This document shows, piece by piece, positions 10,934 to 14,272 of a stretch of 64,000 bases of DNA. A program made the position numbers and the translations under genes. The stretch comes from an uncultured Campylobacter sp. (GTDB lineage Bacteria; Campylobacterota; Campylobacteria; Campylobacterales; Campylobacteraceae): NCBI GenBank assembly GCA_963515555.1, contig CAUPXB010000005.1:29032-93031 (forward strand). Reading direction: 5' to 3'. Position 1 is the stretch's first letter, and each line of letters begins with the position of its first letter. The notes beneath the pieces were generated by a model that was not told where the DNA came from, did no database searches, and saw only the letters and a list, made by a program, of their open reading frames with translations.

Positions 10934-11632
10934 TTACTTATCCTCAAGCACCTTTTCGCGCCACTTCGAGCTTGATTTTTTATCCATCGCCATATCTTTA
11001 GATATCTCGGCCGCAGCCTCAAAGTTTTTCTGCACGCCCTCGCTGCTGTTTTTGTATTTCACTGCGTTCGTACCCTTTATGCCTAGGCTCTGCGCCTCGC
11101 TAATCGCGTCGATATTCGCTCCCAAAAATATAAACTCCCAGTCGTATTTTTCCTGCTTATCGCTTATCATTTTTTTGATCTGCGCCTTTGAGTACTCTTT
11201 GCTCGAGTTCTCCTGCCCGTCGGTGATGATGACGAAAAGCACGGCTCTGTTTTTAGCGTAGATGTCCTCAACTTTTGAGATTTTGTTTATCGTATCGCCG
11301 ACCGCGTCTAGTAGCGCAGTATTGCCGCCTGCGACATAGTCCTTACTCGTTAGCTTCTCGACCTTTTTGATATCGGCTCTATCGTGCAGCGTCTTAAAAT
11401 TCGTATCAAAAAGCACCGTCGTTACCTTGGCATCCATGCCCGCTTCTTTTTGCTTGTCGATCATCGAGTTAAAGCCGCCGATAGTATCGCTTTCAAGCCC
11501 GCTCATCGAGCCTGATTTATCTAAGATAAGCACCATCTCAAGCTGCTTTGGTTCTGATTTTTGCGGCGCTTCTTCGCTTTTAGCAAATGCAAACGCCCCG
11601 ATAATCATCAACAAAAATGCGATTTTTTTCAT
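10934..11632 (-). CDS. Secreted von Willebrand factor A domain protein
   Basis: Signal peptide (MKKIAFLL...AFA); MIDAS motif DKSGSM, T in GNTALLDA and D in ITDGQEN. Confidence 0.85.
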   Translation of the reverse strand: MKKIAFLLMIIGAFAFAKSEEAPQKSEPKQLEMVLILDKSGSMSGLESDTIGGFNSMIDKQKEAGMDAKVTTVLFDTNFKTLHDRADIKKVEKLTSKDYVAGGNTALLDAVGDTINKISKVEDIYAKNRAVLFVIITDGQENSSKEYSKAQIKKMISDKQEKYDWEFIFLGANIDAISEAQSLGIKGTNAVKYKNSSEGVQKNFEAAAEISKDMAMDKKSSSKWREKVLEDK

Positions 11633-11658
11633 ATTTTCTCCTTTGAAAATTTGGTTTA

Positions 11659-11667
11659 ATTATAGCA
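11659..11667 (-). promoter_or_regulatory. Extended -10 promoter of the vWA gene
   Basis: TGCTATAAT on the minus strand about 27 bp upstream of the ATG. Confidence 0.65.
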
Positions 11668-11789
11668 AATTTTAATGGCGCGGCGGTAAATGCGAGGAAG
11701 GTTAAATTTGAGTTTTGTATTTTTATTTGCCCCAAAACACGGTCAAATTTACTTCAAAATTTGCGGCCGAATTTAAAGGCTAAATTTAG

Positions 11790-11821
11790 AAATTTAAGGC
11801 CCGAATCCGAGCCTTAAATTT
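11790..11821 (-). terminator. Inverted repeat downstream of leuA
   Basis: AAATTTAAGGC-N10-GCCTTAAATTT, a perfect 11-bp stem. Confidence 0.55.
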
Positions 11822-11851
11822 GCTAAGCGGCGCGGTCAAACCGATCAAATT

Positions 11852-13369
11852 TTACTTTGTAGCGGTGATTTTTACGTAGCTGTTTAGCGCGCCCACATAC
11901 GCTCTAGCGCTCGCCGTCATCGTATCGATATCAAGTCCGTGACCTATGATGGTTTTGCCGTCAAATTCGACCTTCACGACGACGTTTGCCAGCGCGTCCT
12001 TGCCCTGCGAAACTGCGCTAACCTTGTAATCCTTAAGCACGCCGTGGATACCACTTAGGCGGTCGATGACCTTAAATATTGCGTCCACCGTACCGTTGCC
12101 TAGCGCCGCATCGCTCTTGATCTCGTCGGCGTGACGAAGCGTGATCGCCGCGCTGCTTAGGCCTTTGTTGCAGCTGCTTTGCGTAAGCGTCAAGAACTCG
12201 AAAACCTCAGGGATCTTGATGATCTCGCTCGTAACCAGCGCGCGTAAATCGTCGTCAAATATCTCTTTTTTCTTATCCGCTAGCGCCTTAAATTTCTCAA
12301 ACGCCTCATTTAGCGCGCTATCTTCAAGCTCAAAGCCAAGGCTGATTAGCTTATCTTTAAAGGCGTGGCGACCCGAGTGTTTGCCGAGCACCAGCGAGTT
12401 TTTATCCAGTCCGATACTCTCGGCGCTGATGATCTCGTAGGTCTCTTTGTGCTTTAACACGCCGTCTTGATGGATGCCGCTTTCGTGAGCGAAGGCGTTT
12501 TTGCCGACGATAGCTTTGTTTGGCTGAGGCTCGATGCCGATGATGCCGGATAGTAGGCGCGAGCTGGGATAAATTTCTTTATATACTATGTCCGTGTAAA
12601 GCGGCGCGAATACGTCGCTACGCGTCTTTATCGCCATCACGATCTCTTCAAGCGCGGCATTTCCCGCACGCTCGCCGATACCGTTTAACGTACACTCGAC
12701 CTGCCTAGCGCCCGCTTTTATCGCGGCTAGCGAGTTTGCCGTAGCTAGGCCTAAGTCGTTATGATTATGCACGGAGACGACTGCGCGACCGTTTATAAAT
12801 TTAACCATTTCTCCTATACGAGCGGTAATCTCCTCGGGATATAGATACCCCACGGTGTCTGGGATGTTGATCGTCTTTGCTCCGGCGTTTATAGCGGCGT
12901 CGCAAATTTCTTTTAAAAAGCTCATCTCGCTCCTGCACGCGTCCTCGCAGCTAAACTCGACGTCCTCGCAGAAGGTTTTAGCATATTCCACGGCTCGCAC
13001 GGCGCGTCTAATCACTTCATCTGGAGACATTTTTAGCTTAAACTCCATATGGATCGGGCTCGTAGCGATAAAGGTGTGGATGCGCCTATTTTTTGCCGGA
13101 GCTATAGCTTCGCCCGCAGCCTTTATATCGCCGTCCACGGCACGGGCGAGCGAACAGATAGAAGCGTTTGAGGCTTGCTTGGCGATCTGATGTATCGCGT
13201 CGAAATCGCCCCTACTAGCCGCCGCAAAGCCGACCTCCATGACGTCTACGTTTAGGCGCTCTAGCTGGCGCGCGATACGGATTTTCTCCTCGGTATTCAT
13301 TGATGCGCCGGGGCTTTGCTCGCCGTCTCGTAAAGTCGTATCAAATATTATTATTTTATCATTGTTCAT
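11852..13369 (-). CDS. leuA: 2-isopropylmalate synthase
   Basis: [25 protein letters not shown] and HESGIHQDG motifs plus the C-terminal regulatory domain. Confidence 0.97.
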
Positions 13370-13439
13370 TTTTTATCCTTTTTGGGGTTTTTGTTTGTAT
13401 GGTTAAATTTTTATTATTAGGGTGTGAAAGAGTCGCTGC

Positions 13440-13496
13440 TTAGCGCAGCAGCAGAAGTAGAGAGAAAAATGCGTTAAATTTGACGTTGCCGTTCAT
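13440..13496 (-). CDS. Putative leuA leader peptide MNGNVKFNAFFSLLLLLR (18 aa)
   Basis: The ATG overlaps the pssA TGA and has an AAGGAG SD 5 nt upstream. Five consecutive Leu codons (CTA CTT CTG CTG CTG) precede CGC TAA, 70 nt upstream of leuA. Confidence 0.8.
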   Translation of the reverse strand: MNGNVKFNAFFSLLLLLR

Positions 13497-14272
13497 TCGC
13501 TCTCCTTTTGGTTTTTTTTGTTTTTACATCTCATAAAAACATAGCGGATTATACCGTAAGAAACATAAACGCTCATTAAAGCCGTAACCGCCTCGATCGG
13601 GTAGATATAAATAACCGAAAACGCGACCGTAAGGCCGACTAATATGCGTAAAAAATGGGCTTTTTTTAGATCGATTTTTTTAAAGCTAGGGTAGCGGATG
13701 TTGCTTACCATCAAAACGGAAAGCAAAATTTGCAAAAACAGCAAAAACCACTCGGCACTTCTAGTAAAATCATACTCCAAGCTCAGCCCAACCCAAAATG
13801 CAGACACAATGGCCGCCGTTGGTATCGGAAGGCCGATAAAAACAGACGGCTCGTAGGTGCCGGTCATTACGTTAAACCGAGCAAGTCTAATAGCACCAAA
13901 AACTACAAACAGTGCAGCGACTAGCGAACCCAAACGCCCAAAGCTGTGTCCGACCGTAAAGTAAAAAAGCATCGCGGGCGCGACGCCGAAAGCTATAATA
14001 TCGGCAAGACTGTCAAACTCCACGCCGAATTTTGACGTAGTTTTAGTTAGCCTCGCTACTCGCCCATCAAGTCCATCCAAAAATAGCGATAAAACTATGT
14101 AAACAATAGCCTTAAAAAAGTAGCCGTTAGCCTCCTCGACTAGTCCTGCGCTGGCCGCGATATAGCCGCGGACGGAAGCGATAATACTAATAATACCCAA
14201 AAACGCTGAAGCCGCCGTGAATAAATTCGGCAAAATATACATTAACTGAAGTTTATGCTGATTGTCTTGCAT
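13493..14272 (-). CDS. pssA: CDP-diacylglycerol--serine O-phosphatidyltransferase
   Basis: CDP-alcohol motif DGLDGRVAR...GVEFDSLAD; RLARFN; FIGLP. Confidence 0.95.
   Translation of the reverse strand: MQDNQHKLQLMYILPNLFTAASAFLGIISIIASVRGYIAASAGLVEEANGYFFKAIVYIVLSLFLDGLDGRVARLTKTTSKFGVEFDSLADIIAFGVAPAMLFYFTVGHSFGRLGSLVAALFVVFGAIRLARFNVMTGTYEPSVFIGLPIPTAAIVSAFWVGLSLEYDFTRSAEWFLLFLQILLSVLMVSNIRYPSFKKIDLKKAHFLRILVGLTVAFSVIYIYPIEAVTALMSVYVSYGIIRYVFMRCKNKKNQKESE

Follow-up and report, generated by a model that had tools for sequence, protein, structure and literature searches.

Leader peptides named LeuL, TrpL and MetL have been proposed in C. jejuni (Porcelli 2013, PMC3847290), and Table S12 of that paper lists LeuL for most Epsilonproteobacteria that have leu genes. 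In C. jejuni, leuL has a start site of its own, the leader RNAs end shortly past the stop codon, and promoters follow the consensus gnTAnaAT with the -35 box absent, as described in the available text of the same paper. Ribosome profiling later recorded strong translation-initiation peaks at C. jejuni leuL, CJsORF41 (Froschauer 2025, PMC11955535). Regulation by ribosomes on upstream open reading frames (uORFs) has been described elsewhere: masking of a Rut site by the uORF ribosome is established for tnaC, speFL and cruR, and the accessible portions of that work give the Rut profile as 60-90 nt with C>G and little structure, while calling Rut prediction difficult (PMC12360218). Rho has also been suggested for actinobacterial cys leaders, which carry cognate codons and no terminator, and an actinobacterial LEU element before leuA has been described in which the Leu run is proposed to pair with the leuA Shine-Dalgarno (SD) sequence; a similar-looking Streptomyces leuA leader does not behave as a classical attenuator (PMC1262725, in the part available). 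No mechanistic study or leucine-dependence test of Campylobacterota leader peptides was found in the literature searched, a scope that leaves out most subscription journals. A 2010 comparative attenuation survey by the Lyubetsky group may cover both Campylobacterota and Rho.

The locus described here lies in a 64,000-nucleotide stretch of DNA from an uncultured Campylobacter sp. (the window), where a short ORF stands between pssA and leuA on the minus strand (Table 1). Translation of minus-strand positions 13496..13440 gives MNGNVKFNAFFSLLLLLR-stop, letter for letter the LeuL that PMC3847290 (Table S12, Fig. S7) predicted in 2013 for C. rectus and C. showae, so the leader element is already known. 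The view of the earlier note that no leucine attenuator had been described in Campylobacter falls because this same peptide is already in print as a predicted LeuL, and an initiation peak has been reported for C. jejuni LeuL (PMC11955535). For C. rectus and C. showae, the available text of PMC3847290 gives only the peptides, with the pssA overlap, an embedded -10 box, a hairpin and Rho absent from it, and the word pssA has no occurrence in its main text. The leader itself is therefore not new, and the interest lies in how leuL works; to this we add a putative embedded promoter, an apparent synonymous bias toward C and a proposed role for Rho, none of which was found in the cited papers.

Table 1. 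Features of the pssA-leuL-leuA locus (positions are those of the window)
Feature	Position	Strand	Basis or remark
pssA, CDP-diacylglycerol-serine O-phosphatidyltransferase	13493..14272	-	TIGR00473, 150 bits against a cut-off of 107
Putative sigma70 -10 box TATAAT, preceded by GG	13548..13553	-	gnTAnaAT consensus, 4-8 nt spacing (PMC3847290, available text)
SD of the leader ORF, AAGGAG	13502..13507	-	Sequence; within the last pssA codons
leuL leader ORF, 18 aa	13440..13496	-	ATG overlaps the pssA stop; identical to C. rectus/C. showae LeuL (PMC3847290, Table S12)
Five tandem Leu control codons CTA CTT CTG CTG CTG, all CUN	13446..13460	-	Sequence
Short hairpin, 5-7 bp, ~-9 kcal/mol	13435..13452	-	Last Leu codons plus stop; U-tract absent
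C-rich, G-free unstructured spacer, 14 C and 0 G in 48 nt	13384..13431	-	Candidate site of Rho loading, jointly with the C-rich control codons
SD of leuA, AAGGA	13376..13380	-	Sequence
leuA, 2-isopropylmalate synthase	11852..13369	-	TIGR00973, 694 bits against a cut-off of 599

Most of what the earlier note had read from the letters proved exact. The 18-codon uORF with its Leu run is there as claimed, the overlap of its ATG with the pssA stop agrees with the pssA ORF (14272..13493), the AAGGAG in the final pssA codons was located at 13507..13502, and the distance from the leader stop to the leuA ATG (13369) is 70 nt. The five tandem Leu codons are also present, but they do not stand directly before the stop, as one Arg codon separates the run from it. 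An AG-rich motif like the leader's SD is visible upstream of the leader in relatives. Among the gene names offered, LeuA, PssA and PrmA passed their NCBIfam cut-offs (TIGR00973, TIGR00473 and TIGR00406), while the best matches of Psd and CheY fall below theirs.

The rarity of this arrangement was gauged with a genome-wide scan, based on our own ORF calls, for SD-led uORFs of 12-40 aa upstream of 1410 long ORFs. An amino-acid run was found in 6 of 207 SD-led uORFs, two of the six being Leu runs, and the window leader is the only one of the six that precedes a matching biosynthetic gene, as judged by eye from N-terminal sequences. The other short ORF with an SD and five Leu in a row, on the minus strand of contig C22 (genome G000), is 183 nt upstream of a probable outer-membrane or secreted protein gene, and may be due to chance or be the end of an unrecognised gene. 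No further leu gene follows leuA; leuB is on contig C8 and leuC on C29. Inspection by eye of ~260-300 nt upstream of leuC and of the leuD-leuB pair revealed no obvious leader, and the uORF scan flagged none there. On the 3' side of leuA (11633-11851, minus strand), an inverted repeat of ~11 bp is seen around 11790-11820, and a separate TATAAT occurs near 11680-11660, upstream of a 232-aa ORF (10934..11632) that has no NCBIfam match and that we take to resemble a protein with a signal peptide and a von Willebrand A domain.

A search for LeuA gave relatives in 137 of 142 genomes of the genus; in the phylum, where the query was N-terminal, 181 of 301 genomes had one. We examined 150 loci: 70 from the same genus (the 30 best matches and 40 taken to broaden the sample) and, out of the 150 matches listed, 80 from other genera. 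A leader was called where an SD-led ORF of 12-40 codons had at least three Leu in its last ten. Leaders were called at 123 of the 150 leuA loci across the phylum, a count that describes spread among genomes that are kin and not independent trials; two of the calls (L116 and L142) are doubtful and were left out of the spacer, hairpin, folding and pairing counts, of those on the 58 distinct C-terminal peptides and on the pssA overlap, and of the promoter count with one leader per peptide. The conservation of a Leu-rich uORF before leuA across Campylobacterota, which the earlier note had singled out for checking, was thus borne out. The leader is present at 68 of 70 loci in the genus (f1g1), 10 of 10 in f11, 9 of 10 in f6, 8 of 8 in f2, 8 of 11 in f3 and 5 of 6 in f8; it is scarce in f1g5 (3 of 8) and was called at none of the loci of f4 (0 of 7), f9 (0 of 2) and f1g4 (0 of 2). 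A few of the loci scored negative have two-Leu leaders. Many lineages keep the Leu run while the 5' part of their peptide varies.

Several loci depart from this pattern. The leader has apparently been lost in L042, L080 and L089, where pssA overlaps or abuts leuA (L089 as judged by eye), and in L040, where another gene lies upstream of leuA. None of the seven f4 loci has a leader; in most of them, pssA and leuA are separated by a promoter of TTGACA type. At L108 (f2), no pssA match was found upstream, and the C-terminal codons and hairpin are nearly those of the window genus. Eight further loci of the same genus (L154-L161, from G290, G246, G229, G334, G254, G316, G216 and G213; 8 of 31 genomes) carry a LeuA of the E. 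coli-type subfamily, and all eight have a Campylobacterota-style leader ending in LLQLSL, like the f11 and f6 leaders. One of the eight C. jejuni-type leaders is identical to C. jejuni LeuL, and the LeuA enzyme may have been replaced beneath a retained leader at these loci. A peptide motif, LP[KQ]I[EK]I[KR]N, was found at 40 loci in four families (24 in f1g1, 9 in f11, 4 in f8 and 3 in f12), ending 0-1 residues ahead of the Leu run (for example L036, L123, L138 and L146). Its 23 DNA versions vary freely at synonymous positions, indicating that it is conserved as protein, and it would occupy the ribosome tunnel during a stall. The window peptide does not have this motif. Peptides that bear it appear in the PMC3847290 table, without comment on the motif in the available text.

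The control codons themselves carry a strong signature. Leu codons of the control region are CUN in 404 of 427 cases (95%; 93 distinct leaders) as compared to 57% in flanking genes, and in family f6 UUR codons make up 5 of 44 in the leaders versus 51 of 52 in leuA. Over 58 distinct C-terminal peptides, the CUC:CUU ratio is 78:49 (72:461 in genes), two-fold codons end in C in 57% of cases (20% in genes), and Ser is spelled UCN in 82% (51% in genes). The bias toward C is much weaker in the 5' part of the leaders. Since the preference extends to synonymous codons that do not change the tRNA, it goes beyond tRNA choice. In the window genome, ARAGORN found tRNA-Leu with the anticodons CAA, GAG, UAA and UAG and did not find CAG, so that four of the control codons (CUA and the three CUG) would be read by tRNA-Leu(UAG). 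CUA is the most frequent Leu codon of this genome (28.8%), and the rare-codon argument made for C. jejuni is therefore not transferable here; as an explanation of the Leu run in the window genome it was rejected. The preference for C could in part reflect base pairing to the SD of the leader itself, for which the control region beats shuffles in 16 of the 58 leaders (mean z of -1.04); at the window locus the pairing is not above shuffles (z +1.25), though the fold shows a helix at ~0.7. Our reading is that the leader is the Campylobacterota LeuL, through which the ribosome gauges tRNA-Leu charging and controls leuA; leucine sensing by the leader is held to be very probable.

How the leader is transcribed is a separate matter. 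The earlier note had placed leuA on a cheY-prmA-ftsH-psd-pssA transcript and had coupled the leader to translation of pssA. The putative -10 box (Table 1) lies inside pssA, 57 nt upstream of the leader ATG, and would set the leuL start site near 13544-13540; the last ~20 codons of pssA putatively double as promoter, 5' UTR and SD of the leader. A promoter and terminator scan of 13300-13900 returned no promoter on the minus strand, as it requires the -35 box that is absent from Campylobacter promoters, and a test of the -10 box alone was therefore used (L022 was left out of the promoter tests, its pssA end being mis-called). An exact TATAAT precedes the leader by 20-80 nt in 40 of the 51 distinct DNA sequences of overlapping leaders, as compared to 7 of 408 pssA control windows. 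With one leader per distinct peptide, TAnAAT at -80..-20 was found in 28 of 36 overlapping leaders versus 30 of 288 control windows. The box is encoded by differing pssA codons in different lineages (Gly-Ile-Ile, x-Ile-Met or Tyr-Asn), and in the window genome only 10 of 162 Gly-Ile-Ile tripeptides are spelled with TATAAT. From these counts, leuL-leuA is probably driven by a promoter of its own inside the pssA tail.

The opposite reading is that leuA has no promoter and that its leader is loaded mainly by ribosomes finishing pssA, which would tie leucine control to a housekeeping operon. It would fit the position of pssA before leuA at 122 of 150 loci and the overlap of leader start and pssA stop at every leader-positive locus of f1g1 (68 of 68), f1g3 (8 of 8) and f8 (4 of 4), and 8 of the 36 overlapping leaders are without a strict TAnAAT at -80..-20. 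The enrichment of a -10 box spelled by different codons argues against it, as does the leader's own SD. The leader is also separated from pssA by a gap in f11 (10 of 10), f2 (7 of 8) and f12 (2 of 3), is without overlap in f3, and has no pssA match upstream in f6, and in C. jejuni a separate start site serves leuL (PMC3847290). Because pssA overlaps leuA directly where the leader has been lost (L042 and L080), the overlap suggests mostly ordinary gene packing. We regard this reading as decidedly unlikely, and both the dependence on the upstream transcript and the coupling to pssA translation as doubtful; the other part of the proposal in the earlier note, a leuA gated by a Leu-sensing uORF, stands as a conserved leader of Leu-sensing type (codon bias; 123 of 150 loci). 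Read-through from pssA into leuL probably also occurs, since the scan of 13300-13900 gave nothing terminator-like by the pssA stop and a single weak match inside pssA.

The last Leu codons can pair with the sequence after the stop, as the earlier note had seen, and folding gives the resulting hairpin a pair probability of ~0.9. Its core stem recurs in the genus, at 67 of the 68 loci that have a leader; one of its pairs is G-C in 42 loci and A-U in 25 and has no mismatched form, a compensatory change that probably reflects one or a few events. This hairpin could be a weak intrinsic terminator whose 5' arm lies in the Leu codons, so that a stalled ribosome would block it directly with no antiterminator. 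Such a role would agree with the conserved stem and its compensatory pair, with the same hairpin at the f2 locus L108, and with genus tails holding 2-5 U in 8 nt (the hairpin listing left out most near-identical loci among L001-L030). Against it, the window tail starts G-A-C and has 4 U in 8 nt, the scan made no terminator-like call at the site, and a comparable hairpin is missing from most leaders of f1g3, f6, f8, f11 and f12. A ribosome arriving at the run would, moreover, mask the 5' arm whether stalled or not, and the compensatory pair probably stems from one or a few events. A terminator function is therefore unlikely.

Nor was a classical switch found. No GC-rich hairpin with a clear U-tract occurs in the leaders examined or in the eight C. 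jejuni-type leaders. At the window locus, no antiterminator helix competing for the 3' arm of the hairpin reaches a pair probability >0.3, and the spacer has no G to pair. A scan of 13000-13900 against Rfam gave three chance-level matches, none near its gathering score, even at E<=10, and the folding z-score of the whole region (-1.25) is not significant. The leader thus appears to work like an amino-acid attenuator but fails the classical terminator/antiterminator tests.

The region beyond the leader stop points toward another effector. By C-G excess, the spacer ranks first among 1005 upstream regions of the window genome, a set built from our own ORF calls that may include unrecognised coding DNA, and it folds at only -0.6 kcal/mol. 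The most C>G of the 1005 and unstructured, the spacer matches the described Rut profile. Spacers are C>G in all 39 distinct genus leaders (22.5% C, 1.0% G), as compared to 10.5% C and 7.5% G in 14 leader-negative intergenic regions. A 78-nt window over the run and stop has a C-G excess of at least 8 in 51 of 58 leaders versus 1 of 161 windows of leuA coding sequence, a lenient control for this skew. A rho gene is present in the genome, above cut-off. C. jejuni leader RNAs are reported to end soon after the stop codon (PMC3847290), yet no classical terminator is seen, which favors Rho. In other groups the signal is weaker: spacers are C>G in just 4 of 8 f2 leaders, the skew of f6 is mild, and all eight C. 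jejuni-type spacers are U-rich, with 2-3 C versus 3-5 G. Only the control codons are therefore C-rich in the C. jejuni type, which counts against Rho. On balance, the case for Rho as the effector of leuL attenuation is about evenly poised.

We propose the following sequence of events. Most leuL-leuA RNA would start at the promoter in the pssA tail, and a portion would come from the operon upstream by read-through. When leucine is plentiful, the ribosome would complete leuL and depart, exposing ~80 nt of C-rich, weakly structured RNA made up of the control codons and the spacer; Rho would load on this RNA and halt transcription before leuA or early in it. When leucine is scarce, the ribosome would stall on the CUN run and shield the upstream part of the Rho site, and RNA polymerase would enter leuA. 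Judging from the size of its footprint, a stalled ribosome would cover just part of the C-rich tract and leave ~50 nt of spacer free. The hairpin would be an accessory at the level of the genus, as a pause signal or a protection of 3' ends, and not the switch. As a whole, Rho-dependent attenuation of leuL from a promoter embedded in pssA is the best supported of the mechanisms weighed, with about an even chance of being correct.

Two further explanations were weighed against Rho-dependent attenuation. In the first, control is translational in the manner of the LEU element: the leuA SD is held in pairing with the Leu codons until a stalled ribosome releases it. Modelled SD accessibility does rise slightly when the run is blocked, from 0.55 to 0.63 at the window locus and from 0.43 to 0.51 over 76 leaders, 28 of which have more than 0.3 of SD pairing directed to the run and stop region (besides the doubtful calls, this folding sample is without four loci lacking a scorable SD and most of the near-identical loci among L001-L030). 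The control region, by contrast, does not pair with the leuA SD any better than dinucleotide shuffles do, with a mean z of 0.07 and 4 of 58 leaders at p<=0.05. With pairing at shuffle level, sequestration of the leuA SD of the LEU-element type was rejected, and we consider it very unlikely. In the second, the stalled ribosome controls mRNA stability by shielding a site of nuclease entry, or the leader is a small peptide that is not regulatory. The spacer, A/U-rich and single-stranded, might be open to a nuclease, and the short leader RNAs of C. jejuni might arise by processing, but this leaves the synonymous C bias and the near-absence of G from the spacer unexplained, and the Leu run is kept in many lineages in which the 5' part of the peptide varies. 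Little probability is given to either form of it.

If Rho is the effector, this biosynthetic attenuator would sense tRNA charging but act through Rho masking instead of terminator/antiterminator switching, and would represent a compact case of attenuation in terminator-poor bacteria. A broader and more tentative proposal, to which we give somewhat less than even weight, is a phylum-wide terminator-free attenuator whose Leu codons are the core of the Rho site. In the genus, this attenuator would be driven from a promoter written in pssA codons and may also mark the 3' boundary of the upstream housekeeping operon; in four families, the conserved protein motif ahead of the Leu run may tune the stall from within the ribosome tunnel. 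The choice of CUN and C-ending codons even in very AT-rich genomes would follow, because the Leu codons would double as the Rho-site core.

Among described systems, the enterobacterial leuL, trpL and hisL leaders share with this locus the tandem cognate codons before a biosynthetic gene and the same expected logic. The window leader differs from them in having no Rfam match, no U-tailed terminator and no antiterminator helix, so the likeness to E. coli leuL drawn in the earlier note is a functional one only. The actinobacterial cys leaders and LEU element are likewise cognate-codon leaders without a terminator, and the LEU element also precedes leuA; the pairing of Leu run and leuA SD proposed there is unsupported in the window leader, in folding that models no pseudoknots (PMC1262725, available text). 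The likeness to tnaC, speFL and cruR lies in the proposed masking, by a ribosome, of a site at or just past the uORF that is C>G and has little structure, and the genome has both a rho gene and, in the genus, such a site of 60-90 nt, which is weaker or absent in C. jejuni-type spacers. Those three leaders stall through the nascent peptide and a free ligand, and their use of Rho has been shown; the window leader is proposed to stall through uncharged tRNA, with Rho as its inferred partner (PMC12360218, in the portions available). C. jejuni LeuL differs in its downstream leuABCD operon, in a LeuA of the other subfamily and in its U-rich spacer, and translation has been seen for C. jejuni only. 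With Epsilonproteobacterial LeuL as a class, the window leader shares an identical peptide, a position as an SD-led ORF directly before leuA, a C-terminal run of CUN Leu codons and conservation in relatives.
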